A DNA stretch of 60,341 bases, filler included, from Hausera hauseri (GCA_046269625.1; 10 parts of 10 records of this genome joined end to end with filler, not necessarily neighbours in it); one strand, 5' to 3'; numbered from the whole stretch's first letter, positions 6,245 to 34,694 are shown. The notes: generated by a model not told the origin, from the letters alone. A program made the numbers and translations.

Positions 6245-8237
6245 TAGGACCTGTGAATTTTATCCAAAACTAAGAAATATCCGACTAGAAGAAGTCCAGC
6301 ATTTGACAACTAAATTTATCGACGAAATCTCAATTCAAGATCAGGAAACTTTACATATATGTGAAGAACATAAAGCAGCCCTAGAAGAAGCAATGAGATT
6401 CATACGTAAACCACAAGAATATATGGCCGGAACAAATCAGAACTGCCATACTGAGTTGACAAAAATAAGGAATGACCAACATATTAGTTTTAAAGAATCT
6501 AAATTCAGTAAGAAATTGCTTGATGCGATAGATCCCGACTTCAAAATCATTAATGAGATGTATTAGTTAGCTTTTCTCTTGGTGGAAATGGCAGAAATTA
6601 ATGACTAGAAGATGAGACAATTTATACTCAAGTTGCGAAAAGTCGAAGAAACATGCATTAGAACCAAACAAAGAGCAACTAGGCTGGCCGAACTAATAAA
6701 ATAGCTGGAAATTTATCGGAACAAATATGCTTTTACCGAGTCAAAAATTAAAGATGAATGTGAATTTGTACAAAGATGGCAAAGAGATATAATTATCAAA
6801 CTAATTGATTATCACCAAAAGGGATTCATTCATTCTAATGAATTAGGCGAACTATTGAAAATGATTCAGTATGCATGTGGAAACAGAATAGGTTTCCAAA
6901 CTACGCAGATGAATGAAATGCAACGGAGATTAAAGGAAATTCGAAAAAACGTGAACAGAATGAATACAGCGTTGACAGACTACGGGCTTCCTGACGTTGG
7001 AAATGAACCGGAATGGATGCACTAACGGTCGAAAACCCTGGTACTGCTGTACAGCTAAATGAAGTAGAAATCTGTCCGCAAAATAGGCGATTCAATATGG
7101 AGATGCTCCTGGATTCAGCGCTAACTGAAAGGGATTTAATTGAACTAATTAATGTAAACATTACTGAAAATAAGCTAAGGCAACTTATTCCGACTTTAAC
7201 TAAATTATCTAGTGAGAAGATAATTTATAGCGTAATGCCAAAGCTTTTGATAAGGAAATACGCTAAAATTTTTAGGGCTAAACCCGAGGTAACGATAAAA
7301 GTAAGGATACCTTCCGAGTGGATGGACAAAAAAGAATGCGAGTTAATTACTTATTCCTATGTAATGGACGTAAGAAAATGGTTAATAAAAATGGTTGAAC
7401 AAGCGAGCTAAATTATAGATTCTATTTTAGAGGGAGAATATTAGACGAGTTAGAACAACTAATAGACGTCGGGATTATACCCCACGAAACAAAATGAATA
7501 GTAGTAGTAATAGCTGGTGAGCAGATTAAAGAAGAAGCGACATGTAAAGCTAAAATAGAACAATGCGTAGGACAAATCATGGGAGACCGAGACGCTACAA
7601 TGTACTTTGAGTACTTACAAACAGACGAAGATAGGGAACAATACGACAAGAATCTTGTGCCACTGAGTATAATGTCAACAACCGTTCGGAAACAGAGATG
7701 TCCAGTAGGTAGGCCTAGAAAAATTCAAGAAGACGTTGATTATAACGGAGAATTGATTAGAGAATTGAGACAGATATCAATCCCTACCTTCAGCACAAGC
7801 AATGAAGAACTGAGTGAATGAATGAAGAATTTAATACGAATCGTAAATTATTCTATCCTTCGGGGCGACACGTTAAACGATAACGAGAGAGCGATATTTA
7901 ATGCAGCCAGAATGATGAGAAGTTCCTGTTTAAAGTTATCAAAAAGTAACTAAATCGATGAAGCAGTAGCCGAGAAAATCATGGTGGAGAATACAATAGA
8001 AGAGCTAAGAAAAGTAATACTGTACTTAGCCGTCAAGACATATCCTAGTTGGGAACAAGAATTTAGTCGAGCTACAAGATTAGCACGAAGAGCGGCAAGG
8101 AAGCTACCTGGAAAAGTAAATTGGTCAAGATTATTCGATAAAGAAGAAGACAAAAGAACCGGTAATAGTAATAAACTCGAAGATATGTTGCGTAATTTGA
8201 TAACGACGGATGTGGTGGCCGGAAGAAGAAATCAAAT
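6245..8237 (+). pseudogene. C-terminal part of the unknown polyprotein region, including a ubiquitin-like domain (~7290-7512) and an AT-hook (RCPVGRPRK)
   Basis: ORFs 6303, 7013, 7579 and 7981 align with copy B (17500-19460) and copy C (29980-31915, minus); the lesions fall at different places in each copy. Confidence 0.8.
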
Positions 8238-10094
8238 TGGTTAATCAGCTTACTTACCTTCATGATGTTATTAAAACAAATAGGTGCTGTTACTGTCTAC
8301 AATTGCGACAGGTTCAAACTCGGACAGAAATACTCTTTAATGGACTTGGAGGTATGCGATGACGCCAGACCGCATAAACTAGAAACGAGAGAGAAAAGCT
8401 ACTTCCTATATCCACAGCAAGAATTAATATCGTTGGATGGAATGGAATGTATGTTGAGACTATCTCGTAGTATCTTTCACTGTAGACTAATGCACGGACA
8501 TTCTTCGATAATTAAACCAACAACTCCAATTCCAATGAATTTGGAATGCCAGCACTGCAAGCAAGCCAGGGAAACCGGAAGATTAAAATTGGATAATATG
8601 GAATTAGAGATGCAACCAGAGAAGATAATTAGAGCATATAAAGTACTGGTCGGAAGGCTAGATATGCATAACGTACATTGTAACGGAGCAGAGTATGACA
8701 CACGGAAAGGGGCTAGAATCGAATGTAATGGTCGTCGATTTTTATGAATCAGAGATGCGGGTACAGAAAGTAATGTTCCATAGCGTCACCAAGCTATATA
8801 CCGAGAATCAAAAATGTTATTTACAAGACGGAACCTGTGCCTTCCGAAGTTCTGTTATAATATGGGAATTTCCCTCTGGAAGAAACTGTATTTTTTTAAA
8901 TTAAGGAACTGAAATTTAACGAAATTACAGGGAAACGATATGTAAATAAACTGACACCAGCTCAACAACACGCGAGGACGTATCTCAACACCATACGCCT
9001 ACGATACTAATCTCCGACCAGCATTGACTAAAGTTTATTAAAAAAGAAATGATCTCTCTTTGTGAAGCATTCTTCGTCGCAGAAACGGAGATAAATGTAA
9101 AAACCTGTAAATTAGAAACACAGGACATTTGGTTTGAGGATAACCTGAAAAACCGAGACGACTATTTTTACTACAAAGGCCAAGTTGGGATAGACGAACT
9201 ATATCACAAAATGATAACGAATGATTGTAAGCTGGATATGGAAATCATGAGAACAAAACTAGCTCTTATCTTTGCTAACCCTGAATTAGCCTCGCCAATA
9301 ATTCCAATGGAAGAACGAATTTTCGGTCGAGTTACAGGTGAAGTTTTGTTGACTTATGAATGTGAAAAACGGGACGTACCAATCAATGTCGAAGAAAAAC
9401 GATGTATACAAGACCTCCGCGTTATTTGTCAGAACACTCCACGATTAGCCATGCCACTTACTGCAGTATTGTTAGATAATGCGACTCAACCAACGATCCT
9501 TAAAGATTATAAAGCAAGCTTAGAGAATCAATGTTTAGACATAGCGAAGCAAATTGGATTAGTTTGCCGAATGGAGGTATTACTGCCGCTCCAAATAAAC
9601 TAACAGGAACAAATCTGGCAAAAAGGATTACCGACGATAAGTTTCAAGATACCTCGTCAAAGGGCATATAAAGGCCTAAAGAGATCAAAGCCTTCAGATA
9701 ATTTCTCGCTTTACCGCGACAGCGGATACATTAATTAAATCGAGCCATGGCCTCAGTAGTAGATGATACTCATTATCAGGCTAAAGGGGGATCTCTGCTT
9801 GGTGTAAATATTTACCAGCGAGTAACCACAGAAATACTCTACAGAATTTGGGGAAGACTTTTGATTTTTGGACAAGCCGCCTCGGGATTCCTACCGATAT
9901 ATTTCCTGATACAAATGATTAAGGCAGTTATTCATGCAGTAATAAATGGTTATGAAATATTTACATTGACTGGATTTTCATGCAAGATACAGACTTCAAT
10001 TATAACGTATTTTGGAAAATGCTTGAAAGCGTACGAAGATAATAGATGGAAATCAGACGTAGAACGCCACGTCGGCTGCCACAATCGTAAATGA
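8238..10094 (+). pseudogene. env: Envelope glycoprotein of chuvirus/Jingchuvirales G type (class III fusion protein)
   Basis: Signal-like WLISLLTFMMLLKQIGA followed by VTVY(D/N)C..YSLMDLEVC, C..RSIFHC.LMHGHSSI, C..ARETG, HCNG, CYLQDGTC..IW, RVTGEVLLTYEC..RCIQDLRV, SKGIY, and the membrane-proximal/TM segment IWGRLLIFGQAASGFLPIYFLIQMIKAVIHAVINGYEIFTLTGFS. This Cys spacing and C-terminus match chuvirus G as I know it. Confidence 0.85.
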
Positions 10095-11012
10095 AAAGGA
10101 AGACTTATGTTCTTATACAAGCGGAAGATCACAAAACCTAACACGGGAAGAAATAACTCAGATGATGACAAGCCCAATGGAGGAAAAGTAATTCCCAGAA
10201 CAGACCGACACAAGACGTATTCCGTCATTAAAGCACCATTGCCTATGCTGCCCCCTACCTCTTCTGTCTATGAAAACTGCGATAAACGATCAATGAGCTC
10301 ATATAAGACGGAAATTTATAAAAGAACAATTAGTTTAGAAGACCCCTACAAGGGAACAAAACGTTATGGAGTTCAACAAAAAATGTGTTATCGACAGCCC
10401 ACAGATGATCACAGAATATTGTATTCCCCGAGAGAATCTCGGAATATAGAGACGAGATCACCTATCTGGGAAAATTCAAGGTTAAAAACCTTCCAAAATG
10501 TAGAATTACATACTAACAATCGAGAACAATTAATTAGTACTCATGAAATGGAAGAATTGAACATCAAAAATAATGAATTATATCCCAACCGAGAACTAAG
10601 ACAATTGACGGAGAACATAGTATCTTCCCTGGAAATCCGAATCAACGGACATAAAATGTCGAAGATTAAACGCCCAAAAGCTGCATTTAACTGTTTTGGA
10701 ACAGTAATAGAAGGAAGACCTTTTGCCAAAATTATTATTGAAGACTGGGAAGTTTATGCATTAATCGATACAGGTTCTGAGATGTCTTACATTAAAAATG
10801 ATTCAGTACCTCAAATGCTAAGAGGAAAATTATACCCACCATCTACAATGGATCCAGAAAGCACAGGAGCTTTCGGACAAATGTCGAAACCAATGTTTAA
10901 ATGGAATTCAGAAGTCCAAATAGTTGGAAGGTTTTTCCGTCACGAATTTTCAGTTATGGAACAATTGACTGACGATGTAGTTTTAGGATGCAACTTACTG
11001 AAAAGACTATAG
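10095..11012 (+). pseudogene. pol: Linker and retroviral-type aspartic protease
   Basis: RPFAKIII..ALIDTGSEMSYI ... DVVLGCNLL (DTG catalytic motif and the ILG-D-like motif). Confidence 0.9.
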
Positions 11013-11579
11013 CAATTGACTTACAAAGAGGAAAGTTAATAGAAATCAGACCAAATAAGGGCGTAAAAACGCCAAGGATAGAAAATTTGGAGAAGTATGG
11101 ATTCCACTGGATGAAAATATCCCACCGAGAAAAGAGATGATAGTCTACAAGCAGATTCAACAAGATGACGATCAACCAGTATAATTCGAACCAAAAGAGA
11201 CATTAAAACCGAATATAATACTCAGTAACATACTGACCAGAGTACGCTCCGGTAGTGTGCCGATCAGAATAGCAAATAATGTACCGACATCCGTCAAGCT
11301 TTATGCTTATACTACCTTGGGAAATACTTATAGAATGCAATCTATAACTATAAAAGAAAAGCCTTATAAGTATTGCCGAATTCCAACCTCATGTCGAAAC
11401 TAAGATTTCCCCCAATCTTACTGCCGATTTTACAACTTGTTGTGTCGCAACAAATTAATCACTGATAAAGATGACGAAGATATTGGTAGACAAAAGCATT
11501 AAAGTTGACTATTCCGCTTAAGAAGAAGCCCAGTTCAAATGAAGAGATAGATCATGAAGACCAAAAGATGCCGAAATGG

Positions 11580-12347
11580 TATCCCCCGCCACATTCACTA
11601 AGTCCCGAGATAACAAAAGAAGTTAAACGAATGTTTAAAGCTGATATAATTAGGCCTAGTTATAAATCTTAGTATTCGCCAATCCTCATGGTTAAAAAGG
11701 AAGGTACTACAAAATATAGATTCCGTATGGACTACAGAGCACTAAATAATCTTATGATGAAAGATTCCTTTCCGTTGCCGTCGGTAAAAGAAGCTTTGGA
11801 TAAACTTTCCGGAGCAAAATGGTTTACTACTCTGGATTTATAGTCCGGATACTGGCAAGTAGAAATCGAAGACGAAGATCGATATAAAACAGCGTTCAAA
11901 ACACATAATGGCGTCTATGAATTTAATGTCATGCCATTTGGTATTACTACCGGACAAGCCATTTTTACAAGAATGGTGAACAAAATGTTAATGGAACTAG
12001 ATCATGCTTTTGAATATTTAAATGATGTAATGATAGCGTCAAAGACAGAAAAAGAACATGTAAAGGATATTGAGCACACATTGATGAGACTAGAACAAGC
12101 AGGATTAAAATTGAACCCAAAGAAATGTAAGTGGGCTCAAAATGCAGTATCCTATCTTGGCCATATAGTTGGTGAAGGAGGATCAAAACCAGATAAATCA
12201 TTGTTGAACAAAATATCAGACTGCATGGAGCCACAAAATCATAGAGTTGAGACACTGGCTAGATTTATGTGGGTATTATGCCACTTATGTGCCGGAAAAA
12301 TCGAAAATAAACGCACCATTATATCGTTTACTCAAAAAGAAAATTAA
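11580..12347 (+). pseudogene. pol: Reverse transcriptase (Ty3/Gypsy type)
   Basis: SPILMVKK..RFRMDYRALN..DSFPLP..FTTLDL*SGYWQV..KTAF..YEFNVMPFG..YLND (decayed YLDD)..LKLNPKKC..YLGHIV. Confidence 0.95.
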
Positions 12348-12945
12348 ATGGAAATGGACAGACGTCGAACAAAAGGCTTTCGACGATATGAAAAAAATTT
12401 TAACAAGCGAACCAATTCTACGATATCCAGACTTCAATTTGTCATTCTTAATTAAGACAGACGCCAGTAAAGAAGGTATTGGATATGAATTAGGTCAGAA
12501 AAGAGAAGAAGAAGAATTGGAACACCCAGTCGCTTATGGAGGTTGTTCCTTAAAGAAGGCCCAGAAGAATTATTCCGTCAATGAGTTAGAAACCCTGGCC
12601 GTTAAAGAAGCGCTACGACGTTTTAACGTTTATGTGTACGGACAGAAAATTGTAATTGTCACTGATCACAAAGCCGTCACGACTTTAAAAGGTCGAGCAA
12701 ATAACCCGACATGCAGATTTAACAGACGGATCGGAGAAATCTCTAGGTACAATATAGAATTTCAGTATAAACGAGGAAATAAGCATGTAGATATCGACGT
12801 ACTGTCAAGATTAAAAACTAAGACGAGTGCAATTACTGTTATGAAGAAAACTCAACTTGAGGAAATAATAGACCGCCAACTTGCCCTAACATTGGATAAG
12901 GCGATTAAAATCTCAACCGAGCAAAGAAGAGATAAAGTTATTTAG
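12247..12945 (+). pseudogene. pol: RT connection and RNase H
   Basis: TDASKEGIG..LGQ, NYSVNELETLAV, VTDHKAV. Confidence 0.93.
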
Positions 12946-12975
12946 CAGATTATAGAATTTGTCTAAAGGGACATC

Positions 12976-14201
12976 ATGTCAAAAGGAAGACAACTAAAGA
13001 AACATTTACCCAGGCACGGACATAAATACTGTGTCTTGTATGACAAGAACAGCGAAGACCTTTTGTATTACGAAAGAAAAGGAAGAAAATTAATAGTCAT
13101 CCCAAAAAGCTTAAGCATCGAAGTTTTAATTGCAGAACACGATTCATATTTGGCAGGACACATGTCCTGGAAGAAAACATTAAAAAAAATATTGAATAAA
13201 TACTTTTGGCCCAGTATCTATATTGATGTAATAAATGGATGAATGCTTCCAAAGTATGTGCCACTAAACAGAAAATGACAAAGAACTACATGGCAGAGCT
13301 AAAACCGATTGCCCTACCGGATAGACCTATGCAAGCCATGTCAATGGATATCATAGGACCGCTTCCTACGACCGACAAAAACAATAAATATATCTTAACT
13401 TGTATTGATCGACTAGCTCATTTTGTCGAGTTGATAGCTTTAATCGATCAAAAGGCAGAAACTTTGGCCAAAGCCGTGGTAAGAAGAATCATTTGCCGAT
13501 ATGGACCAAATATTAGCGGATCGAGGAAGTAACTTTACAAGCAAACTATTTGAGAAGATTACCAAAATATTTAAAATCGAGCGGTTGACTACTACTGCGT
13601 ATCAACCTCAGTCTATTGGAATGGTTGAACAAATGATTGCAACTATCATACGCATACTACCAACAGTAGTAGCTAAGGACCAAAAAGATTGGGACAAATT
13701 CTTAGAAGGAACTCAATTTGCAAATAATACCACCCAACATCCGGCAACAGGATTTACGCCATTTTTCACGATGTATGAACGAGAAGCTGTGTTAACCACA
13801 GACTTAGGAATGACGCCGTACACGGTCAGTCCCGAAGATTTGGAGCAAAACTTTGCAGAAGTATTACAGACGCGACTAAAAAATGTTGATAAATCGCCAA
13901 GGAGTTATCCCAAGAATATCAAGAACAGTTTAAAAGGCAATATGATACGAAAGCGAAACCGCATGATTTAGAACAAGGAAATTGGGTTTACGTACATTAT
14001 CAAATATCCAGAAAAGGTACGTCGTTAAAATTGACTCATGCAGGCAGAGGACTATACGAAGTTACCAGAGTTACGCAAACTACGGTGTACATCAACAAGA
14101 GTGGAAAGGAAGAAGTCGTGACTGTACAAAGAGTTGTTAAGAGGGAGATACTGCCCAATAAACGCTACAATTTACGCCAACGCGAGATAAAAACTTCTTA
14201 A
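12976..14201 (+). pseudogene. pol: Integrase
   Basis: H..AGH..KT..YFWP zinc-binding region, MDIIGPLP, DRGSNF, AYQPQSIGMVE, TGFTPF, and a C-terminal RYNLRQR. Confidence 0.95.
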
Positions 14202-15420
14202 ATAATTGCTAGACCGATATCATAAGTTCAGATAGTTTTAGCACTATCGTTAATTGCTTCTTATATTCCGAGAACACACATTCAATGGTGAGACGATGAA
14301 TCTACGCTAGGAGACGTTTACGGAATACGGAAAAGCGGACTAACGGCGAAAAATGCCATAGCGAAGAAGAAACCAACAGCTGAACTTTTCGCCAGACGCT
14401 GTGTGCGCTGGATTTAAGACTCAAAGACCACATCACGATTTCAGGAAATTTCAGATTGTCCTATACGACGTAACAGTGAAGGAAGTAAAAAGTGTGATTT
14501 TGAACCCGGAGATTATACCCAGTGCTGCGATATAGACTTTGTACATACTTACAATCTTACTTATCGCCTGTACTTACCAGACTCAGCAGAAGACTATATT
14601 GAAATAAACCCCTCACTTCAGTTGGTCATTCCTGCTTGGATCAAACGATTTGAAGTAAAGCCCAATGAAATGCTTCAATCCACCTACCAAAACGTAAGGT
14701 TATTAGCGAGAATATTAAAGAAATCTCAATAAACAGAGATGAACGATGTATTCAAGTGGATGTCGAATGGAATTAACCCATAATCAAGCAATCAGTATTT
14801 TTTGAAGATGTAAACGGAAAAACTCCGAAAATAAAATACTATTTTGTTTATGCCGGTGTGCAAAACCCATGTTGTAAACTACCAGTAAACCAAGAATTCA
14901 AAATAAAGTTTGACTTATATAAAGTACAACCGAATAAACCGAGCAAACATTTGCGAACTTACTACCCGGAGAATAGAATATGGAAGATTTCAAGCGAAAC
15001 GACAACCAAAAAGACAACTACTCGGGTTTGTACCGTTGCGAGAACCGTTACATCGGGCAGTACGCCTAAGGAAAATATACTGGAAAGTATACATACTTGG
15101 AAAGTATACCTATTAAGTATTCGGCGTATCGATCTAAAATCGTGTTCTTTGTAGAAGAAAAATTAAATTACAATATACACATAAGCTGCCGAACAACGTA
15201 TAATGATCAAATTGTAACATTACTTAAAAACACTGACCAGACAGAATGCAATTTGTTAAAACCGCAATCAGATTACATAGTACAAGTATATGCAGATATT
15301 AAACAAAACCAAACACCCCATCATAGCTACGAATTAGAAACCAGTTTTCAGAGACATCAAACCAATGAGACAAGTCGAGACACGTCGACGACTAAATCTC
15401 CTAAGACAATCCCATTATAA
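14202..15420 (+). pseudogene. Post-integrase surface-protein ORF (hydrophobic signal-like stretch, Cys-rich region, FN3-like domain, Thr-rich stalk); no TM in this copy
   Basis: VQIVLALSLIASYIP, several Cys, TTTKKTTT, and LLKPQSDYIVQVYA (FN3-like LKP.T.Y...V.A). Homologous to 28707-29636 (minus). Confidence 0.65.
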
Positions 15421-15464: not shown

Positions 15465-15476
15465 AGGGAGGAGAAA
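15465..15476 (+). promoter_or_regulatory. Polypurine tract
   Basis: AGGGAGGAGAAA immediately precedes TGTTG; an identical sequence is at 26055-26066 (minus). Confidence 0.9.
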
Positions 15477-15916
15477 TGTTGGAAAATATCAGCAGTGTCG
15501 TGCCAACCACAAATGTGACAGCTGATCGGAGTTAATAAAAGAAATTTTTGAGCAATAAAATATTATAGAGGAAATAATATATTTTATGTACATAATAAGC
15601 AATGGTATGAGAGGATTTAATTGTATATAAATACAATAAATGAAAGTACAAAAGTTTGTATTTGCGACAAAGGAAATAAACAGAATAATAAACACCACCG
15701 GTAGAATAGCGCGAATATATATAAGCGGGAGGAAGATTAAAAAGAATCAGAAAAATCTGACGACAGCAGCCAGAGATTCAGAAGAATTAACTCTTAAAGA
15801 CTATTCTATTGTGATCTGACCGACTTCGTGAATTCTTTGAAAAGTCGTATCGTGTAGTCAGTTTCTTGGTAATCGTTTTATTTTAATAAAGGTTATGATC
15901 ATGTCTCACAGCAACA
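15477..15916 (+). repeat. 3' LTR of copy A (440 bp)
   Basis: Starts TGTTG after the PPT and ends CAACA; TATATATAA at 15716 and AATAAA at 15885. Confidence 0.85.
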
Positions 15917-18524
15917 GCTGTGCCCCCAAGGTTGCTTTGCTCTCTCAAACAGACTACTTTAATCTACATCATAAACTACACATTATTCCCTCTTAGAACC
16001 AAACTCTTAAAAATTGAAAATAAAACAGTGGTTTGAGTTTTGTTACTGACTGTTGCTCTGTGATGCACAAGCCCGAGCTTGATTGAAGGAAACAAAAAAG
16101 GTGCATGATAAAAACGGAGTATGGTCGTTCGCATCTNNNNNNNNNNNNNNNNNNNNNNNNNNNNNNNNNNNNNNNNNNNNTTAATTAATTAANNNNNNNN
16201 NNNNNNNNNNNNNNNNNNNNNNNNNNNNNNNNNNNNTGGAGCCATTAATACTTAAAATTACGAAAAATAGAGGCCGTAGTCCCTCATTGAAAACGAAACG
16301 TAGAAGGCGTTCGCGTTCACAAGTAACTAGAGAGAAAGTAGAAGAAATGAGAAAAACCGACATCGCTGCAGAGAGTGACGTACAGCCTAGCTTAAATACA
16401 ACATAAATTGGCCCATTCACACCTATCGAGACAAAAGAACTGATAGAGTTTATTAATAAAATTAACGAGATTTGCCCACTTCCCACAAGTGAAGAAGAGA
16501 CGCAAAATATTGAAGATTTTGATGCAAGAAACTGGAAAGTCCGACATTCGTGGAAAAACGCCGATGAATTAAAGAAAATGAGAACTAGATGCCATGATCC
16601 AGAAATATTACAACGAAATTTGGAAAGGATTAACGGACAAGTAGATATATCTGGCAAAGAGCAAGAGTTTGCTGAAAAGTTATATAAAATTTATAATTAT
16701 GTCGTGAAGGAAAGCTTGATGACGCAATCGACTTAGGACAACCTGAAGAGGTAACACCCGAACTTTGATAAAATGGAAGCATGAATTAGAATCATGGGTT
16801 AAAAGTGGAGTCGAATTTTCGGAAGGATGGAGCAAAAATGAAGGTAGTGTTGAAGTAAAAGTCTCTAAAGCTCAGACGCTACTGTCTACCTTNNNNNNNN
16901 NNGAGTAAATCCAAAACAGAAGAGAGTAGTCCGTAATTTAGAGCGTATGATGGATGAAATCCGCTGTGCAATGATTAATCGGCTTAGAGAAAAACCGGTT
17001 AGCAATCGAAGTGATATAGATTTAGAAATATTGGGTATAGACCCAGTAGATATTCCTCCCTTACTGGAGATGATAAAAATTGCCTTTGCCGAACCTAGAC
17101 AATATGCTAATTTAGAGAATCGTATTAAAACGGAGAATGAAAAGAGATCACAAATTAGGAGCTTGAGAAATCGAATTATGTTTATGAAAAACGAAGAGAC
17201 CAATTACGTAATAAATGATTGTATTGTATAATTTGATGAATATAAGTATGAGTTCAATTATGTCAGCCGGATTATGAATTTCATAAAGGGTCCAGATGAC
17301 GAATTAAAGGATGCATATAAAATGCTAGACAAGGCAATATTGGCAAAACCAGTAATCGCCAATCAATTGTCGAAATGGTCCGAATTAATAAGGAGGCTAA
17401 GTAATTTAGTATACCATAAGAAAGAATTTTCAGAAAGCGAACCATCTGTTAAAAAGCAATTAGAAGAAAATGCACGTAACTTACANNNNNNNNNNCGAAA
17501 TATGACTTGCGATTTTTACCCTAGATTAATGAATATCCGACTAGAAGGAGTCCAACATTTAACAGATAAACATATAAACGAAATTTCAATTCATGATGTC
17601 GAAACTCTAGATATCTATCCGGAACAGCGTATCTTTAGAAGAAGCAATAAGGTTCTTACATAAACAACAAGAATGGATGACCGGAACAGACCAGAATTGC
17701 CATACTGAGTTGACCAAAATAAGAAGCGACCAAAATCTTAGTTTTGAAGAATCTAAGTTCGTAAAGAAATTGATCCCGACTCAAAAATCATAAATGAGAT
17801 ATATGAGTTAGTAAATGGCAGAGATTAATGATGAGAAGATGAAACAATTGATGCCCGACTTACGACAAGTTGAAGAAACGTGCATCAGAACTAAACAAAG
17901 AGCAACGAGGTTATATGATTTGGCAGAAGTGCTCGGAATCTACCGGAACAAATATGCTTTTACCGAATCAGAAATCAAAAATAAACGCTAGTTTGTACAA
18001 AGGTGGCAAAGAGATGTAACTATTGAACTAACTGATTATCACCAAAAAGGATTTATCAATTCTAATGAATTAGTCGAACTACTGAAAATGATTCAGTATG
18101 CCTATGGAAACGGAATAGGATTCGGGACCACGCAGATGAAAGAAATACAGCCAAGGTTAAAAGAAATTCGAGAGAATGTACAAAGGACAAATACAGCAAT
18201 AATAGACTATTGACTTCCAGACGTTGGAAATGAACCGGAATGGGACGCGTACTCAGATGCATTAACGACGGAAAATCCGGTGACTCCAGTATAGCTAAAT
18301 GAAATAGAAACGTATCCTCAGAATAGGAGATTCAGTGTGGAGATGCTTCTGGATTCAGCGCTAACTGAAAAAGATTTAATTGAACTAATTAACGTAAACA
18401 TCACTGAAAGTACATTACGACAACCTTAACTAAATTACCTAGTGAGAGTACAATTTATAGCGCGGTGCCGAAACTTTTGATAAGGAAATACGCTAAAACC
18501 TTGAGGGCTAAACCTGAGGTAGCG

Positions 18525-18743
18525 ATAAAGGTAATGGTATCATCCGAGTGGATGGATGAAAAAGAATGTGAGCTAACTACTTATTCCTATGTAAGGGACG
18601 CAAGAGAATGGTTATTGAATAATGGTGGAACAAACGAGCTAAACTATAGATTCTATTTTAGAGGTAGAATACTAGACGATTTAGAGCAGTTAATAGACGT
18701 CGGGAATATTCCCGACGAAACAGATCGAATAGTGGTGATAGTA
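18525..18743 (+). CDS. Ubiquitin-like (beta-grasp) domain within the polyprotein
   Basis: IKVMV...YRFYFRGRILDDLEQLIDVGN..IVVIV aligns without gaps in the core to ubiquitin [21 protein letters not shown]; length ~73 aa; no terminal GG. Confidence 0.7.
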
Positions 18744-23551: not shown

Positions 23552-24532
23552 TTCTGTGGATGGGGTGGACTGGACTGGACTGGACTGGAGTAAAGTAGAA
23601 TGGCACATTGTGTGTTAGAATTGATTTCTAATATTTATACTCTATGCTAATTTACTATTATATTTCATATTTAATAAGATATTCGAATTTTTTTTCATTT
23701 CCCTTTGTTAAAATTTAATTGAAAATACGATGGATGGATGGGTGGGTGGGTGGATAGCGGTCAGTAGTATAGAAATGCCGGTCCTCGATCAGCCCTTACC
23801 CCCACCACAAGGATTTTGTACGATGCATCCCGGAGGCTGGAGAAGTATGGGAAAATGTGGATGTTAAAGGGAAATGATGTATGTCACATAGAAATGATGA
23901 GACGCGAAGGCTGCATTGAATGGTGAAGGAATTAGACCGATCGGATGAAAGGCAGCTTCAATGGGAGATGGAGAAAAGTGATCCAGAACCGGTATTTTTA
24001 TACTACCACGAAGTAAACGTTGAATGACCAACCAAATGAATAGCCAAACGGAACCAAAATGGACGATGCATGGAAGGCGATACAGACTCCAATGTGCATG
24101 TGTGCGTGTGTGTGTGCACTGATGATGGATTCCAGTATCGAGATCAGTATCAAATGAAAGAGTTCGACGTGGGTTATTCGTCAAAGTCATTCGAATTGAA
24201 ACCAAGCTTGTCCGGCCGGACAAAGTCGGGAAAACCCAAAAACCGAATAAATCGTTGGAAAGAAAATCATCAAAACCGACCGAAACCGGTTTCAATCGAC
24301 GTGCAGACGGTTTCTGATTTGGATTATGCGGGACGGACAATTTCGACACGTTTCCATTTACGTACGGCAATGAAAAACGGAAAGTGTTATATATTGGGGT
24401 GGCCCTTAACAATCTCCCACTGTATAACAAAATTTATTCTCGAAATTATTTGGCTCACGCAGGTAAGGCCTAACGTTCTCGTTTAGACAGTATTTGTGCC
24501 TTATTTGTTTAGATTTAAACAACTGAAATGCA

Positions 24533-25423
24533 TGTCCATGTTTCAAGGCATGTACGACAATATTTATGTCGACATTCGTTGTCGTCCAATTTAACGTATC
24601 CTTGCCAAAGGCTTTCTATACAGACAGGGCAGATATCTTCATCTTCGTTTGTGTTTTCATCGTCAAGTTCTACCTTGGGAATACTCTTAATTTGTTCAAA
24701 CACAAGACCATCATGATCGTAGTATAGGTATCCATGAACTTCCTTTTGCTGAATGTTAATCGAGTTCTTTCTCGAGTCATAGTCTACTGGAACTAACGTC
24801 CAGTCTATAACAGTCTCTGTGTCGAGGTCAGGAATTTTACCTTCCTTTTGATATTCCCCGTGTTGTTTCTTTACCATCGATTGGACTTGGGCATCCACAG
24901 GAATTGACAGTTTTCTTGTTCTCTTTCATTTAAATATTCGGGCTAAGTACTGTCCTATGTTTAGATTTTCCCACCCATATGCACCTTCTGGGACATCGCG
25001 TATTCCTGCGTTTTTCATATAGAACACTGCTTCATTCAGTTTTTGACGACTGCAATATTCTGCGGTAATTAATAGTTTCCGATAGTCCTTGATTGTCGAA
25101 TAGTGAATGTTTTTCTTGTGATCTCTTTTTCTTGAGTGCGTTTACTCCGCTGAATATCTGGATAAATTCATTTTCCGACTTCCTTCTTGGGGCTTGTTTT
25201 CTGGTTTTTCTTTCAACATTCCCTGATTTGGTTATATCCATTACGTTTCGGTTTCTGTAATTTCGATATCAGTTTGGGAATTTTCCTCTTGGTTCTTTTT
25301 GGTTTCTCTTCTCTTGGGTGACTGTTTTGCTTCGGGCTATTTTATTTCCTTTACTGACTTCCTTTCTCCTTTGCCTTCTTCACGGTTTCTTTTTTAAATA
25401 GATAGTCATAATGTGATAATGAA
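24533..25423 (-). mobile_element. Inserted fragment of the element's RING ORF, flanked by 18-bp direct repeats
   Basis: Homologous to ~26327-27212 (CPVC...CRHKYCRTC). TTAAACAACTGAAATGCA occurs at 24515-24532 and 25424-25441. Confidence 0.8.
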
Positions 25424-25618
25424 TTAAACAACTGAAATGCAAGTACTCTCTTGCGGTCCTGTGCAATCAATTTAATCAAATTCTGACTCTTAACTAGTTT
25501 AAGTTAGAGATTTTAGTTCCTAGGGTAGTCAAATTACCCTTAAGGGGAAAAGATAAACTATAAGTAATTTAGATACAAAAAATTTATTTAAATGAAAATC
25601 AGTCGTACTTAGTACGGA

Positions 25619-26054
25619 TGTAGCACTCGAAATATTTGATGCTGCGATTTTGGTTTTATTGTTTAATTCAACACTGAGCTTCATAAATTCAACTGAATCG
25701 ACTGAATCGCTTTGCGATTTTAAAACTGTCTCCACTAGTTTCAACTCGCAACGACAACTAGTTTTCTCTCTAACCGATTTTAAGTCTATCTATATATATG
25801 GTGAAATGACACGTGCATGCTGATTAATATTTTCTTTGGACTAATTTCAGATTGTTTTTTGTTTTCAACAGTTTTCCAATAATTTATTTTCGTAAGTTCG
25901 ACAAATACTCCGGAAATTATTAAAAATACGGCAAATTTTCCTGATTATTGTTTTCTAATTATACAGAAAATTTTTAAATCCATATAAATATAGATAATGC
26001 TAAAATAACATACAATTCTATACACTTTTAATTGATGTGTACAATTTTGCAACA
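25619..26054 (-). repeat. 3' LTR of copy D (~436 bp)
   Basis: On the minus strand it starts TGTTG directly after the PPT, has a TATA near 25790-25798 and AATAAA at 25655-25660, and ends GCTACA (copy A ends GCAACA). Length is nearly identical to copy A. The distal end is less certain than the proximal end. Confidence 0.7.
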
Positions 26055-26066
26055 TTTCTCCTCCCT
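26055..26066 (-). promoter_or_regulatory. Polypurine tract
   Basis: AGGGAGGAGAAA on the minus strand, identical to copy A. Confidence 0.9.
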
Positions 26067-26124: not shown

Positions 26125-28597
26125 TTACAGTAGGTCCAGTATACGCCGGAGACTACTGTCATCGAATGGGTCAGCAGGGAACCTTATTTCATCCACTTCT
26201 AATTGGTAATTAGTGCTGGGTTGGATTTGAATTTGGACTAGTCGATTACACTCGCCATTTGAGAAATATTTTAATCCGCTTGCCTCAGCCCGACATACTG
26301 GGGACGTGGTTTTCCCGTTTTCTAGGGTCCATGTTTCTAGGCAAGTACGACAGTACTTATGCCGGCATTCCCTGTTATCCATTTTAACGTATCCTTGCCA
26401 AATATTTTCTTTACAAACTGGGCAGATATCTTCGTCTTCGTTAGTATTTTCATCATCGAGGTCTATTTAGGGAATAATTCTAATTCGTTCAAATGCTAGT
26501 CCGTCATGATCACAATATAGGTAACCATGAAGTTCTTTTTGCTGAATGTTAATCGAGCTTTTCCGAAGATCATAGTTTACCAGGACCAACGTCCAATCTA
26601 TAACGGTTTCTTTATCCAGATCGGGAATTTTGCCTTCTCTCTGGTATGCCTGGTATTGCTTTTTCAACATTAATTTGATCTGGGCGTTCACGGGAATTGA
26701 CAGTTTGCCTGTTCTCTTTGATTTGAATACTGGGACTAAATATTGTCTAATTTTCGGGTTCCCCCAAACGTATTCACCATCTGGGGTATTACGCATTCCG
26801 GCGTTCTTCACATCGAATACTGCTTCCTTCAATTTCTAGTGGCTGCAGTATTCCGCTGTAATTAGTAGTTTTGGGTAATCCTTGGTTGTTGAATAGTGAA
26901 TATTTTCATCGGATCTCTTTCTTAAGTACGTTCACTCCGGAAAATACTAGTATAGAATCGGTTGCTGACTTTCTTCTTGGTGCATGGGTGCTATGTTTTC
27001 TTTTGAGCTGTTCGAACTGAGTTATATCCACCTCATTTCGGGATTCTTTGATAATTTGAAGATTTTCTTCTATTTTCTTCTTTTTCTTCTAAATTTTTAC
27101 TCCTTTCAGAACATTTTTCCCCTCAGGCAGCTTTGTCTCCTTCACTGATTTCCTTCCTCCCTTGTCTTCTTTACGATTTCTCTTCTTAAATAGATAATCA
27201 TACAGTGATAGTTTTCTCTTATTCATGGGCACTGTGGTTTCGGCTTCTTCTTCATTGGTGTTGCTGACTTTTTTCCGATACCCTTGCTAAATTTCAGGTA
27301 TCTTAAATATCGTTTGTGGTTCTACATACGTTGTTCTAGCCTTGGAGCTGGGGCCGTGGCTAGTGCTAGGTCTATCATCCATCTTTGCTGGAGTAGTAGT
27401 TGGTCCTGAGCTGGCTACTTGTATTGTTATTTTGTAGTTGGCTCGTTCTGTAGATTCGACAGTTCTAGAAGGAGAACGTGGTCCGAAGTACCTTCTGTGT
27501 CTAGCGCTCAGCTTTTCTGGAGCTTCTCAAGTTCTGGCTTGCATTGTCGGGAACCTATTCATGGTCCCATTTTAGTCCTGCATATATGTCGCGTTGATAT
27601 TGTAAACGCTGACTAGTTGTCAGCAATCAGCTTATTCTTACGTGTTTCCCGTTCATTGCTTTGAGCATTAACTTAAATTGTCTTTCAACGGTCGGTAGTA
27701 GATAACCATTTCTTGATTTAAGGGTTTGTACCATTTGCTCCATTATAACAGAGTGGGTTACTATCTCTCGCTTTCCTGCTACATGCGTGATTGGTAGTTC
27801 CAATGTTTCCATGATCCTTTCCACTTGATACCCGGCGATGATACATCCATATAATCAGTGGGTCAATTCTTCTCTGACCAGTTCGATATCCTTTCCATGG
27901 GCTAACTGTTCCTTTTCTAATCCAGTACCTTTTGAGTAAGTTTCTCTTACTCTCTTTCTCGAACTGATTATTTTCGGGTGAATTTCCGTTCCTCCTATCT
28001 CTCGAATGAACACTTCTATTGTAATATCGTTTCCGTCATATCCTTCTCCATAATTCACAGACATGATTCTGGAGTTCCGAGCATCCTGTACGAATCTGAA
28101 GGAGTGCAGATATTTTTCTCGACCTTTTTCTGTAGGTTCTTGTTTAAATTGTAAGGGCGGTAATCAACTTAACTGGCAATGCGGCAACTCTGAACTCTAG
28201 TTCACAGTTATAGTGATGGAAGTCGCCACTGTTCATCAAGAAGGTGCTGTAGCTGTGTTGTAGCCCTTGCGAGGAATCCCAAGCTTGGTCCTTCAGCCTG
28301 TAATAGATTCCTCCGTGTGCTACGTGAATAAATATGTTCTGATGATAGACACGTTCATATTGGATTAATTGTTGCAAGGCACACGCTCACGCATCTCATG
28401 GCATACAGACGTACTGTCCTATTCTCTTGTGTAGTTCCTTTAACATTATTGGGAATTTCACGAGTATGCTTGTATTCTACGAATGTTTTTCCTTGTAATT
28501 AGCTGTTAATTTGTCGGAATGTCGATTTGGATTGGAGAATTTACACTGTCGCACATTTCTGTAAGAAGTCGTGGATACTATGTCGACTTGTTTCCAT
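26125..28597 (-). pseudogene. Element accessory ORF ending in a C3HC4 RING finger (putative E3 ligase)
   Basis: EDEDICPVCKENIWQGYVKMDNRECRHKYCRTCLETWTLENGKTT(S)PVCR. Upstream fragments 26467, 27627, 27855 and 28144 lie on the same strand. The 5' boundary is inferred from a Kozak-like GCAGCCATGG. Confidence 0.7.
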
Positions 28598-28706: not shown

Positions 28707-29636
28707 CTATTGGGGTTCCAATACCCTTAATTCTCTCTCTATGACATTAGAACGCTTACTATGGCAATTTTTGGCAACTGATCGAAAAGTCGCTATGAAA
28801 ATTATTAGCACGAACGTTGACAAACTTGCGATCATTATGATTTATAAAGTCGTTAATCCTTGGGGTTTTACAGAAACAATTTCTGTTGTCATGTCGAGTT
28901 CTGTGTCTTTGGTCGAGTGTGGTTTTGCCTGAATCTCATTTAAGGTATATAGTGCGAAAGTTTGACTCTGTTTGTCTTTTGCGTTTATTTGTATATATCC
29001 AGATTTTGGCTTTAATAAGTCACATTCAGTCCGATAAGTATTTTTCAATATGATTACTTCTTTATGATTATACATTGTACGGCAATTTATTTCAACGTCA
29101 TAGGTGAGCTTTTCTTCAACGGAAAACACTATTTTACACTGCTGTATCAAATATTTAACCGAAATCTTAACTAATTTCTTTTAGGCATTTTCCTTACCAT
29201 AGTGAGCCTAACAGTGGTGATCACTTGAGTGGTCGGTTTCTTCGTCGTTATATCGACTGCAATTTTCCAGACTCTACTGTCCGGATGATATCTTCCTAAA
29301 TAGGTAATCGATTTATTTATTTGAATTTTGTAGAGGTCCAACTGAAATTTGTACTCAGCCTTCCGGTATTCTACAATATTGATCTGGTCTCGCGTTTCCG
29401 ATGCTACAATAATTCGGAGACGGACTTGACTTATTTATTTTGATTAATCGAACTGAAATCTCCTGGTCGTTTGACAATCTTCCTTTCGTATTTATTTGGA
29501 TGCATTTGTCTTTCTTATCTTCCGAAATACCAATTATGTTTTCATCCAACACCCATTTTATCGGATCTGTTGATTGTACTATGTCGGTGAAATCTGTTAT
29601 ATTAATCCGTTCTCTAGTGGGTATCACTAATTTTAT
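28707..29636 (-). pseudogene. Post-integrase surface protein, copy D, with FN3-like domain, Thr-rich stalk, TM helix and short tail
   Basis: KIVFSVEEKLTY..CRTMYN..LKNT..TECDLLKP matches 15097-15420. It is followed in frame, past one stop, by IIMIASLSTFVLIIFIATF-RSVAK. Confidence 0.7.
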
Positions 29637-29978: not shown

Positions 29979-32900
29979 ACTCGATTCATTTCTTCGGTAT
30001 CCAACGTCCACCGTCGACAAATTACGTAACATATCATCGAGTTTATTATTGTTTCGTTTGTCTTCTTCGTTGTCAAATAGTCTTGACCAAATTTACTTCG
30101 CAGGGCAATCTTCTTGCTGCTTTTCGTGCTAAACTTATAGCTCTATTGATTTCATTCTCTCGATTAGGATTTATTTTGATGGTTAAGTATAGTAATACTT
30201 TCCTCAATTTCTCATTGGTTTTCTCTACCATTATCTTTTCCATTACCGACTCGTCGGTTAAGTTGCGTTTTTGGCTGCATCGAAAATTATCTTTTCTTTA
30301 TCGTCTAATGCATCACCTTGAAGGCTTGAATAGTTTACAATTCGTATCAGATTCTTCATTGGCTCATTTAATTCTTCATTATCTGTGCTAAAAGTCGGGA
30401 TTGACATTTGTCGCAATTCTCTAATCAATTCTCCATTGTAGTCTACTTCTTCTCGTGTTTTCTTGGGCCTACCTACTGGACGTTTCGGCTTTTGGCCTTT
30501 AGCTGTTATTTCACTCAGTGGTATTAAATTTATATCATATTGCTCCTTATTTTCATCCGTTTGCAAATACTCGAAATACATTGCAGCATCTCGGACTCCC
30601 ATAATTTGTCTTACATATTGCTCTGCCTTGGCCTTACGCGTAGCTTCCTCTCTTGTTTGTTCGTTAGCTATTACTGCAACTATCCGGTTCGTTTCGTTGG
30701 GAATAATCCCGACATCTGTTAGTTGTTCTAGGTCGTCGAGTATTCTACCTCTGAAGTAAAATTTGTAGTTCAACTTGTTTGTTCTGCCGTTGTTTATCAG
30801 CCATTCTCTTATATCTCTTAGATAAGAATATGTAGTTAACTCGCATTCCTTTTTGTCCATCCATTCGGATGATACTATTACTTTTATTGTCGTTTCAGGT
30901 TTAGCCTTTAAGATTTTAGCGTATTTCTTAATTAAAAGTTTCGGCACCGTAATATAAATAAATAAAAGTTAGTGTCGGAATAAGTTGCCTTAATTTACTT
31001 TCAGTGATGTTTACGTTAATTAGTTCGATTAGATCTTTTTCAGTTAGCGCTGAATCCAGGAGCATCTCCACATTAAATCGTCTGTCCTGCGGACATGTTT
31101 CTATCTCGTTTAATTGTACTGGAGTCATGGGCTTTTCGGTCAGTATTGCGTCGAAGTATGCATCCCATTCTGGCTCGTTCCCGACATCTGGATGTCCAGC
31201 GCCTACTAAGGCTACATTCGTACTCTGCACATTTTCTCGGATTTCTCTCAACCTAGACTGTATTTCTTTCATCTGCGAAGTTCGGAAACCTAATCCGTTT
31301 CCGCATGCGTACTGAATCATTTTTAGTAATTCACCGAATTCGTTAGGGTCGATGAGTCCCCTTTGGTGATAATCTGTTAATTCGATAATTACATCTTTTT
31401 GCAATCTTTGTACGAATTCTCGCCTATTTTTGACTTATGATTCCGTAAAAGCATATTTGTTCCGGTAAATTTCGAATTCTTTTGTTAGTTCGTCTAGCCT
31501 CGTTGCTCTTTGCTTCGTTTTGATGCACGTTTCCTCGGCTTGTCGTAATTTCGGCATTATTTGCCTCATCCTCTCCTCATTAATCTCTGTCATTTCTACA
31601 TTTCGTTTATGATTTTTGAGTCGGGATCTATCGCGTCTGACAGTTGCTTTACGAACGTAGCTTTCTGAAAACTAACATGTTGGTCATCTTTTATTTTTAT
31701 CAATTCGGTATGGAAGTTTTGATCTGATCCGGCCATCCATTCTTGAGGTTTATGCAAAAATTTTATCGTGTCCGTTAAAGTGATTCGGTGTTGCGGGAAA
31801 ATATTTAGTGTCTCGATATCTTGGACAGAAATCTGGTCAATGGGTTTATCGCTTAAATACTGAACCCCTTCTAATCAGATATTTCTCAATCGTGGATAAA
31901 AATTACAAGTCATATTTCGCTTTTCGGTAAAACTCGTCTCTTCGATCATTTCATAGATCTCTTCCAGTATCGTTGCTTCTTGTTTCTTCTTCATAAAATT
32001 TAGTCGTCGTAATGCTTCGAATTTCGTTCGGATATCTATTTCCGCTAGTATTGTATCTAGCTTACGTGCGCTTTCTTCTAACTGCTTTTTTACAGAAGGC
32101 TCATTTTCAGGGAATTCCTTCTTACGGCTCTCCACTAATTTGCTTAATCGCATTACTAATTCGGACCATTCCGACAGTTGATTTGCCATTATTGGCTTGG
32201 CCAATATAGCCTTATCTAGCATCTTGTATGCATCTTTTAACTCATCGTCCGGTCCTCTTAGGAAATCCATAATCCGGCCGACATAACTAAACTCTTCCTT
32301 GTACTCGTCCAACTCTACGATACGAGCTTTTATTACATATTGAGTCTCATCGTGATTTGGGGATATGATTCGATTCCTCAAGCTATAAATCTGTGCTCGC
32401 TTTTCATTTTCTGTCTTAACTCAATTTTCTAGGTTTGTATATTGTTTGGACGTAGCAAATGCGATTTTTACCATTTCCGTCAAGGGAGGAATATCTATCG
32501 GGTCTATACCCAATATTTCTAAATCGATATTACTTCGGTGGTTAACCGGTTTTTTCCTAAGCCGATTAATCATTGCGTGACGAATTTCATCCATCATACG
32601 TTCTATATTCCGGACTACTCTCTTTAGTTTTGGATCCGTTTCTAAGGAAGACAATAGCGTTTGAGCCTCAGCGACTTTTACGTCGACACTATCTTCACTT
32701 TTGCTCCATCCTTCCGAAAATTCTACCCCGCTTTTGATCCAAGATTCTAATTCATACTTCCATTTTAACAGCGTTTCAGGTGACACCTCTTCTGGTTGTC
32801 TCACGTCGAGCTTCCCTCCACTATATAGTTTCAAACTTTTATATAATCTCTCCGCATACTGCTGTTCCTTTCCCGATATGTCTACTTGTTCGCTAATTTG

Positions 32901-33728
32901 CTTAAGCCTCTCTAAATTTCGCTGCAGTATTTCTGGATTGTGGGATCTAATTCTCATTTTCTTTAATTCATTGGCGTTTTTCCACGAACGTCAAACTTTC
33001 CACTTCTTTGGATCGAAATCATCAGTAATCTCTGTTTCTTCTTCACTAATGGGAAGTGGGCAAATCTCGTTAACTTCGTTACTTGACTCTGCAGACTCCG
33101 TTACCTCGACAGGGGTAAGTGGCCCCATCTCTGGTGTATTCAAACTATGTTCCGTGTCGCCTCCTACGACGACCTTCGCGTTTTCCGTTTCTTCCCTTTT
33201 CTCTCTGGTTATTTTGGAGCATGAACGACTTCTACGTTTCATCTTAAGGGAAGGGCTGCGGCCTCTATTTTTCGTAATTTTAAGTATCAACGGTTCCATA
33301 AATTCTTTTTCCGCTGCATCATCATCAATAGACTTATCTACTTTTTCAACTGTTAACTCAGGCTCTGTGTCTAAGTCGACTGCCGTCGATGTGCCTGGTT
33401 TATCAGATGTTTTATTACTTGTCGGAACACTCTTTTTCCGTGTCATATCAATACGTTTAGGTTTTATTGCGTGTTCATATTCCGTTTCTGGTTCGGCTAG
33501 GCCGTGATATACTTCTGGTAGTCTCAACTTATCTCCGTATTCTTTTCTAGCCATTAAAATTCGCAAGTTAGCAGTATTCGGCTGAGCATCTAAGAATCTT
33601 CGTAAGTTTTGTATGTCGATGATAATACCTGTGTCTCCACGAACACCATATTTTGCTTCTAAATTTTCATTGATTCTAATCATATTAGTCTTATTTGGCT
33701 CAGTAAATGAAAGGCTACGCCGATTTGG
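29979..33728 (-). pseudogene. ~1,250-codon unknown region between the Gag zinc knuckle and the glycoprotein: charged/helical segments, ubiquitin-like domain 30669-30887, AT-hook KRPVGRPKK
   Basis: ORFs 32991, 32421, 31875, 30928 and 30258 are colinear and separated by single stops or frameshifts, several of which are open in copy B. Confidence 0.8.
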
Positions 33729-34694
33729 ACGACCTTGAAATATGTCCTTCTTTACCGCAAGTGAAACAGACTAAATTTCCATTTCTGCCGATTCTGTCGA
33801 CCGTCTTCGTTTACCGGTGACTTAGATCTATTTATACTTTTATTATACTGGTTTGACAAACTTTGCGCATTATCTGCATTTCGTCGATTATCATTATTTC
33901 GGTTATCGCCGTTTTGATTCGAGTAGTTCGAGCATTTATAATCTTCTCTATTCCTATCCCAGTTTAAATCTGATTTATTCATATTAGTATAATTATTGCC
34001 TCGGCTATATCTATAACTGTTATTATTATTTCGGTTCCCATAATTTTTGTTACCCTTAAATCGTCTGTCATCTCTTCCACGATTGTCATTCCGATTTCTG
34101 TCGATGCGATCACTTCGATCATTATTTCTGTCCTTTCTATCATTATGTCTGGCATATCTGTCGAGTGCCATTTCTAAATCCTGAGCCAACTGTAGAGTTC
34201 CTTCAAAATTTTCGGGCCTAGCCAAAATTAATTGTTTAACCAAATCTCGCGACCAAATACCATGGATTAATTGAGTCGTCATCATGACGTCTAAATCTGG
34301 CGGTGTTGCCTTTTCTGCGGCATCGCGTTCCGCATCTGTTTTAGCTCTAGCTACGTTGGCTATTCGCAGTGTGTTTATGTAACTATTGGCAAGTTTTTTT
34401 AACGCAAATGCAAATTAGGTTACTGATTCACTTTTTGTTGTACTCTATTCTGAAATGCCATAAGCTTTTGCTGAGGCGTTACAGTCGGTAATAATTTATG
34501 ATTTAATGCTCCTACCAGGGAGGACCAAGATTTCTTCTCATAATTAGTACGTTCGCTATACGCGTCAGCAGCTAGATCCTTCAGATATAGTGACAAGCTT
34601 CAGGAGTAAGGCTAGCACCTTCTGCGTGCAATTTATAAGTTCTCAAGAATTCATTAAGCCCGTCTGGGTCGCCATCGTATGCTGGCAGGTTTAG
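33729..34694 (-). pseudogene. gag: Gag (capsid, Asn/Arg-rich linker, CCHC zinc knuckle)
   Basis: LPAYDGDP..LNEFL, LSLYLKDLAADAY, NRVQQK.ESVT.FAFAL..LA (major-homology-region-like), QLIHGI, P.NFEGTLQLA..LE, and the frameshifted knuckle CFTCGKEGHISR at ~33730-33768. Confidence 0.85.

Follow-up and report, generated by a model that had tools for sequence, protein, structure and literature searches.

What kind of retroelement left four colinear fragments in a 60,341-nucleotide stretch of Hausera hauseri DNA (GCA_046269625.1; the whole stretch is referred to as the window), and how did a chuvirus-type glycoprotein gene (G) come to lie between its gag and pol genes? We interpret the fragments as dead copies of a Ty3/Gypsy element in which a gB/chuvirus-type envelope (env) separates gag from pol. 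Within the published GAG-ENV-POL group it is likely a small relative of the planarian Burro elements. We put the probability of this reading at about 0.8. A first-pass annotation of the window had listed four fragments that tile such an element. All four are present, and the order it gave holds within the contigs of copies C and A.

The window is a concatenation in which contigs are separated by spacers of 100 bases (a stop-codon linker flanked by 44 N on either side). Since each of the four pieces (copies A to D) sits on its own contig, they are different insertions, and their adjacency in the window carries no meaning. Copies A, B and C share 72-79% nucleotide identity: 78.6% between A and B across the 4.1 kb they have in common, 75-76% between B and C in two shared stretches of 1.26 kb and 2.2 kb, and 71.7% between A and C over 2.25 kb. 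Every copy is disrupted by stops and frameshifts, which bears out the earlier description of all copies as decayed.

The gene order is independent of the joining of the scaffold, because it can be read inside single contigs. Copy C alone runs from gag through a long spacer to the start of G. Copy A alone runs from the spacer through G, a protease (PR), a reverse transcriptase (RT), an RNase H (RH), an integrase (IN) and a further open reading frame (ORF2) to the polypurine tract (PPT) and the long terminal repeat (LTR). The overlap composite is gag, a 1,248-codon spacer, a PF24664 glycoprotein, PR-RT-RH-IN, a signal-peptide protein, PPT and LTR; it measures 14.7 kb from gag to PPT, plus at least 0.66 kb of LTR. 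The gene list of at least about 15.5 kb given in the first-pass annotation agrees with this composite; its RING gene is found only in the more distant copy D. Elements of the A type measure about 12 kb plus LTRs, and their ORF2 runs straight to the PPT without a RING gene. The interval 6245-34694, annotated as the element, also takes in the end of a host inositol 5-phosphatase gene, which lies outside it.

All seven G fragments tested match PF24664, six of them at E-values from 8e-15 to 4e-9 and the short one of copy C at 0.012. The individual values are 1.7e-10, 3.2e-13 and 7.8e-15 for copy B and 2.3e-9, 4.3e-9 and 1.7e-13 for copy A. Hydropathy and cysteine columns, together with PF24664, identify a gB-type ectodomain between a signal peptide and a transmembrane segment. 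The cysteine columns are common to copy B and the relatives; copy B keeps 12 of the 13 cysteine-rich alignment columns, and by eye the cysteine spacing follows the planarian C1a rows in the supplement of PMC13524379. A class III fold would be expected for this family from PMC13524379 and PMC7642597; a search of the PDB with the G sequence profile gave two chance matches only. The envelope of chuvirus G type upstream of pol was annotated correctly. In copy B no stop interrupts the frame that leads from the spacer to the signal peptide of env. In copy A the env tail and the protease share a frame, and the stop that intervenes there is not present in copy B. Compared across the copies, the spacer-env and env-PR transitions are continuous; between gag and spacer the single copy with this junction changes frame, and env may or may not have shared one frame with both gag and pol.

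Purifying selection acted on the spacer, on env and on the 3′ genes as the copies diverged. In eight of ten pairwise comparisons dN/dS was 0.10-0.25, compared with 0.57-0.83 in 10 runs of the same pipeline on neutrally mutated random sequence. The spacer gave 0.12-0.19 (0.15 for the 5′ part of copy C versus B, 0.19 for A), the G ectodomain 0.16 (copy A), the anchor and linker 0.25, ORF2 0.18 (A versus D) and the RING gene 0.10 (D versus a second RING piece). Of two comparisons over short parts of G, one yielded 0.05 and the other was saturated. Since these ratios lie far below the neutral control, the spacer, env, ORF2 and RING regions were functional while the copies diverged.

A HMMER search with the N-terminal frame of G returned 36 proteins at E ≤ 0.001. 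We scanned 17 relatives, namely 15 of these 36 and two cluster members. PF24664 and RT occur in one open reading frame in five of the 17 (P0002, P0010, P0012, P0016 and P0037); four further relatives combine PF24664 with a protease, and another two lack RT but show a zinc knuckle upstream of PF24664. Among the five env-pol relatives, four extend 400 or more residues past the integrase, with at least two more hydrophobic segments, and the fifth ends inside the integrase. P0002, P0010, P0012 and P0037 resemble the window element in that PF24664 is followed by in-frame PR-RT-RH-IN and further hydrophobic segments. The best match, P0001, unites in a single frame gag with its zinc knuckle, segments that score as ubiquitin and as Bcl-2, and G; in the window gag, the candidate ubiquitin-like domain and G follow in the same order. 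These five, P0001 together with the latter four, differ from the window element by their distance (24-29% identity in G, 42-49% in RT), and some relatives, unlike the window element, have multiple proteases or ankyrin repeats. Weak Bcl-2 scores directly before env were obtained for P0004 (1e-3), P0001 (0.055), P0009 (0.2) and P0019 (TIGR00865, 0.007).

Other searches added little. A word-index search with G among longer proteins confirmed none of 217 candidates, a profile search two of 7,998 (one of them already among the known relatives), and an Atlas feature search with G gave no usable match. No loci related to the element were found in viral contigs. Three related loci in metagenome contigs are ordinary Gypsy elements with no env visible by eye in their long frames; two of the three end near RT. 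As side observations, the polyproteins P0037, P0002, P0005 and P0009 each have at least two domains resembling aspartic proteases, and those of P0002 and P0037 occur past the integrase as well. P0010, an env-pol polyprotein of 2,627 residues, is recorded as hypothetical and assigned to a bacterial metagenome-assembled genome, a bin that it likely entered as animal contamination. P0025 fuses mitochondrial ribosomal protein L47 to the start of the envelope family, a gene-calling artefact or a chimera.

The pol region of copy A has the order PR-RT-RH-IN with an H2C2 integrase, as in Ty3/Gypsy elements (Metaviridae). Pfam matches were RVT_1 (4e-23), RT_RNaseH_2 (8.5e-31), Integrase_H2C2 (6e-11) and rve (2e-6). 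Among solved structures the best matches of the RT are Ty3 RT (4ol8, E 5.9e-41; 7q5b, 4e-40), and the next non-Ty3 entries follow at 1.8e-31 and 2.3e-19. The assignment of RT, RH and IN to the Gypsy type, made in the first annotation, is in line with both results. Pfam families typical of BEL/Pao, which we take to be Peptidase_A17, DUF1758 and DUF1759, were absent from the 49 window frames scanned. With the Gypsy-type Pfam set and the Ty3-closest RT, we rejected a BEL/Pao identity. A conserved segment between PR and RT aligns with the same position in P0002 (z 9.4), P0037 (z 9.3) and P0010 (z 4.5); the alignment to P0012 is not significant and Pfam gave no match. The dUTPase-like label for this position comes from Burro (PMC6431247).

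The capsid region of copy C aligns to the gag of P0001 (z 10.6) and P0013 (z 7.5), with 0 of 300 shuffles reaching either score; it has no Pfam match, and alignments to the gag of other relatives were not significant. A damaged zinc knuckle lies in another frame at about 33730-33790 (zf-CCHC, E 1.7e-5). The gag-env spacer of 3,745 nucleotides corresponds closely to the region of about 1,250 residues that the first-pass annotation had called unknown, and this region is now partly readable. Its first 900 or so residues have no convincing match in Pfam, NCBIfam or PHROGs, and the first 724 reach at most z 3.9 against nine relatives (1 of 100 shuffles). The last third contains a candidate ubiquitin/SUMO-like domain. 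In copy C Pfam scores are E 0.049 for Rad60-SLD_2 and 0.077 for ubiquitin. Atlas features match PF00240/PF11976 clusters at 0.90-0.91, a range in which 4-10 of 100 shuffles reach 0.9, and the region is colinear with P0001 over about 175 residues (z 6.4). These weak but concordant scores suggest a ubiquitin/SUMO-like domain upstream of env, at the place where Burro carries PF11976. In copy C it is followed by a GRPK motif, which we take to be AT-hook-like.

Behind the integrase, copy A contains ORF2. Its signal-like segment keeps the frame of the integrase, although stops precede and interrupt it. ORF2 of copy A lacks a transmembrane segment, whereas copy D has one. The two FN3-like pieces are 44% identical in protein sequence, and ORF2 as a whole is 61% identical in nucleotides over 446 bp (dS about 2.3). 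The Pfam scores of the copy A piece are weak (Interfer-bind E 0.034, fn3 E 0.14). In a PDB search with a mixed FN3 profile, six of seven matches fell on Tie2 and EphA2 at E 0.22-1.3, weak values that serve as a lead only; the matched stretches are presumably FN3 domains. A short C-x2-L-x-P-x3-Y pattern is common to the window and three env-pol relatives. Of 24 pairwise comparisons between ORF2 and the relatives, three reached z 2.8-3.4, probably owing to composition. The accessory coding region of copy D scored z 2.4 against P0019. Part of it appears by eye to resemble what we take to be a degenerate DEDDh exonuclease; searches of Pfam, PDB, NCBIfam and PHROGs gave this reading of 27630-28163 no support. 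The first annotation was right in postulating accessory genes.

The RING gene is carried only by copy D and by a separate 891-bp piece. This piece lies about 610 bp past the PPT of copy D, between exact 18-bp direct repeats at 24515 and 25424. The repeats look like a target-site duplication, as if the piece had entered the LTR region by a LINE-type or a repair-mediated route. Around the PPT, 67 bp are 88% identical between copies A and D (15411-15487 and 26044-26120), and the LTR body of copy D is no more similar to that of A than shuffles are. The 67-bp block is a conserved cis element, perhaps with swapping of LTRs. Given the distance between D and A in ORF2 and their unrelated LTR bodies, a sister subfamily may be the source of the RING gene.

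Several observations weigh against our reading. No intact copy, 5′ LTR, primer-binding site or target-site duplication of the element is visible in the window, where contig ends cut the 5′ sides. G is only 22-29% identical to its relatives. In the RT tree (seven rows, one of them env-less, after L001 and L002 were dropped as too short) the window element sits unplaced on a long branch, and the tree contained no Burro or errantivirus rows. The gag-spacer junction is seen in copy C only and with a change of frame, at which a programmed frameshift is conceivable. A PDB search with the ubiquitin-like profile found nothing. The possible BCL2-like helices of copy C align weakly to the Bcl-2-scoring segment of P0001 (z 3.0, 4 of 300 shuffles), and the corresponding alignments of A and B are not significant. 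For the post-integrase protein, the one copy in which the signal segment of ORF2 is seen has two stops between it and the integrase, and none of eight pairs between the FN3 pieces and the relatives' post-integrase parts was significant (z ≤ 1.6). BIR, MATH and ankyrin domains, the cargo described for Burro, had no Pfam match in the window frames. Finally, a look-up of the host gene gave no exact match and otherwise only distant animal matches: the named matches of the 6-phosphogluconate dehydrogenase (6PGD) gene in the window are three molluscs, at no more than 58-64% whole-protein identity.

For the origin of the envelope, the first-pass annotation had proposed an independent capture from a negative-strand RNA virus lineage. 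Such a lineage-specific acquisition of G from a chuvirus or a related virus, converging on the Burro layout, would fit the identity of PF24664 as a Monjiviricetes fusion family and the G tree (30 rows), where the window sequence lies on a long branch without a supported sister. It would also fit the finding that GAG-ENV-POL elements are not monophyletic (PMC13524379) and the published capture in Anakin elements (PMC7642597). However, the closest relatives of G are retroelement polyproteins with the same in-frame layout; the matches consist of retroelement-type polyproteins and unnamed fragments, none of them named viral in libraries that contain few animal viruses. The top match, P0001, has gag and the ubiquitin-like region in common with the window as well, a sign that gag, spacer and env were inherited together as one block. 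Since the Burro and errantivirus layouts are already published (PMC6431247, PMC13524379), we favor an ancient association: the envelope was probably inherited within an old retroelement lineage and not freshly taken from a chuvirus, and a separate capture appears improbable. Still less credible is a nested viral or element insertion of G in an ordinary Gypsy element, or a gene order produced by assembly, to which we attach almost no weight. The scaffold does consist of concatenated contigs, but the spacer-G junction is common to three copies and the G-linker junction to two, all within contigs. The frames are continuous, G was under purifying selection, intact relatives have the same order, and in the repeat families shown (20 of 21 for A, 7 of 7 for B) G is not flanked by any pair of repeats. 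Both versions were rejected.

A more serious alternative concerns the 3′ end. The full gene list may never have existed in one element, and the composite may combine two subfamilies, A/B/C with ORF2-PPT-LTR and the distant D with the accessory and RING genes. Copies D and A overlap only in ORF2 and in the 67-bp block around the PPT, their LTR bodies are not related, and no contig joins pol to the RING gene. On the other hand, A lacks the ORF2 transmembrane segment of D and passes directly into the block before the PPT that both copies have, the pattern expected of an internal deletion, and a third RING piece (74% identical) indicates that the gene was multi-copy and under selection. We consider this alternative a real possibility that falls somewhat short of even odds. 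It is compatible with a dead Burro-like GAG-ENV-POL element and alters the 3′ gene list only.

The element likely made one membrane-threaded polyprotein. Gag and the spacer, with its ubiquitin-like domain and perhaps BCL2-like helices, would be synthesized in the cytosol. The internal signal peptide would direct the fusion protein into the lumen of the endoplasmic reticulum (ER), and the transmembrane anchor would bring the chain back, so that PR-RT-RH-IN lie in the cytosol. Past the integrase, another signal peptide could then export a type-I membrane protein with an FN3-like part and a stalk. The parts would be released by the protease of the element together with the signal peptidase of the host, and particles could bud with the fusogen and move between host cells, e.g. 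from soma to germ line. The ubiquitin-like, BCL2-like and RING modules might dampen cell-death or degradation responses of the host. In its most far-reaching form, which we regard as doubtful, this would be a two-glycoprotein retroelement with PR-RT-IN placed between a class III fusogen and a separate FN3-type attachment protein. Its polyprotein would cross the ER membrane twice, and the 3′ RING and the upstream ubiquitin/BCL2-like genes would act as host-control factors. Binding would then be split from fusion as in herpes- and paramyxoviruses. Retroelements with an envelope are generally assumed to rely on one Env protein; a separate binding protein, if real, would change the view of how invertebrate retroelements move between cells.

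The remaining features of the window are listed with those of the element in the table below. The 6PGD and inositol 5-phosphatase/SKICH genes indicate an animal genome. Matches to type-B DNA polymerase and endonuclease VII occur in pieces at 2299-3090, 46560-46950, 34797-36146 and 48700-50052, among which a 1.37-kb repeat is shared at 74%; these are presumably decayed Polinton-like elements. A 31-bp minisatellite (52886-53399) and a gapped, GAA-rich purine tract of 5 kb (55200-60341) were also observed.

Table 1. Coordinates of the retroelement copies and other features in the window.
Feature	Position	Strand	Remarks
Copy A	6134-16136	+	own contig
Copy A, spacer 3′ half	6245..8225	+	78.6% identical to copy B
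Copy A, BCL2-like helix position	7954-8130	+	position only
Copy A, envelope	8226..10091	+	PF24664; transmembrane segment near 9861; broken
Copy A, linker and aspartic protease	10095..11009	+	same frame as env tail; RVP E 3.2e-5
Copy A, conserved PR-RT segment	11119..11400	+	at the Burro dUTPase-like position
Copy A, RT, RNase H, integrase	11574..14198	+	Ty3/Gypsy type; stops, frameshifts; RT active-site motif damaged
Copy A, ORF2 after integrase	14202..15417	+	signal-like segment; FN3-like piece 15118-15330; Thr/Ser-rich stalk
Copy A, PPT and 3′ LTR	15465..16136	+	PPT 15465-15476; LTR starts with TG at 15477, cut by contig end
Copy B	16237-21623	+	own contig
Copy B, spacer	16237..19447	+	final open frame from 19268 enters env signal peptide
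Copy B, candidate ubiquitin/SUMO-like domain	18516-18800	+	Pfam E 0.16
Copy B, BCL2-like helix position	19159-19335	+	position only
Copy B, envelope	19448..21299	+	internal signal peptide; PF24664 ectodomain; transmembrane segment near 21138; broken
Inositol polyphosphate 5-phosphatase, SKICH domain, 3′ exons	22636-23548	+	apparently very short introns
Second RING piece (gene of another copy)	24515..25441	-	891 bp; 73.6% identical to D; inserted behind PPT of D
Copy D	about 25440-29636	-	own contig; more distant from A/B/C
Copy D, PPT and LTR	25442..26066	-	PPT 26066-26055; LTR starts at 26054
Copy D, basic region, unknown domain, C3HC4 RING finger	26128..27286	-	zf-C3HC4 E 6.1e-7; broken
Copy D, accessory coding region	27290..28470	-	no convincing match in Pfam, PDB, NCBIfam, PHROGs
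Copy D, ORF2	28740..29636	-	FN3-like piece; Thr-rich stalk; in-frame transmembrane segment at about 28840-28790; broken
Copy C	29737-34694	-	own contig
Copy C, possible degenerate BCL2-like helices	30076..30297	-	directly before env signal peptide
Copy C, candidate ubiquitin/SUMO-like domain	30600..30899	-	Pfam, Atlas, P0001 alignment
Copy C, first ~930 spacer codons	30969..33770	-	charged, probably helical
Copy C, R/N/D-rich nucleocapsid-like stretch and damaged zinc knuckle	33721..34199	-	from translation
Copy C, gag capsid region	34200..34694	-	three frames, broken; 5′ side truncated by contig end
Mos1/mariner-type HTH remnant	39983-40606	-	remnant only
6PGD gene	42740-44185	+	intact, intronless

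Among known systems, Burro is the nearest precedent, as the first-pass annotation had suggested. Burro/GYPSM1 elements are giant Gypsy elements (>30 kb) of Schmidtea mediterranea with a relative in Dugesia tigrina and carry env in frame between gag and pol (PMC6431247). The window element shares with them a gag with zinc knuckle, a long spacer, a ubiquitin/SUMO-like domain, env between gag and pol, a conserved PR-RT insert, accessory genes and a RING-type motif somewhere in the element. Both envelopes resemble mononegavirus fusion proteins. For the ubiquitin-like, BCL2-like and RING modules of Burro, roles in host death or degradation pathways have been proposed (PMC6431247). The window element differs by its size (about 12-15 kb plus LTRs), by the position of its RING gene 3′ of pol and by a BCL2 remnant that is doubtful. 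Because it shows neither the giant size nor the BIR/MATH/ankyrin cargo, the element is Burro-like and lies outside Burro proper. The section on Burro in PMC6431247 mentions no membrane protein after the integrase such as the one likely present in the window element.

Chary and Hayashi (PMC13524379) describe GAG-ENV-POL errantiviruses with an HSV/gB-type envelope in Nematoda, Bryozoa and Platyhelminthes, citing Sacco et al. 2022 for the nematode elements, and argue that the origin of env in this group is ancient. The window element agrees with these in its Ty3/gypsy pol, its gB-type env between gag and pol and its C1a-like cysteine spacing, and differs in that the window has no intact copy. Anakin elements (PMC7642597) carry the same glycoprotein family on an LTR retrotransposon; they are BEL/Pao elements of mosquito hosts, whereas the window element has a Gypsy-type pol. 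The accessible text of PMC12440569 and PMC11410931 contains nothing on the GAG-ENV-POL layout. The architecture, which the first-pass annotation did not recognize, is therefore a published one (PMC6431247, PMC13524379), and at the level of layout it corresponds to the already described family that the annotation itself had named as an argument against its proposal.

The only potential novelty is the likely second membrane protein after the integrase, which appears weakly FN3-like. The main text of PMC13524379 does not contain the words 'fibronectin', 'accessory' or 'RING'. We did not find such a protein in the literature searched; Sacco 2022, Grohme 2018 or Repbase may describe it. The finding would gain weight if the host lay outside flatworms, nematodes and bryozoans, or if the post-integrase protein were a conserved attachment factor. 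Compared with these systems, the element adds one decayed, divergent family to the published GAG-ENV-POL group. It is in favor of an old block of gag, ubiquitin-like domain, env and pol that was passed on as a unit.

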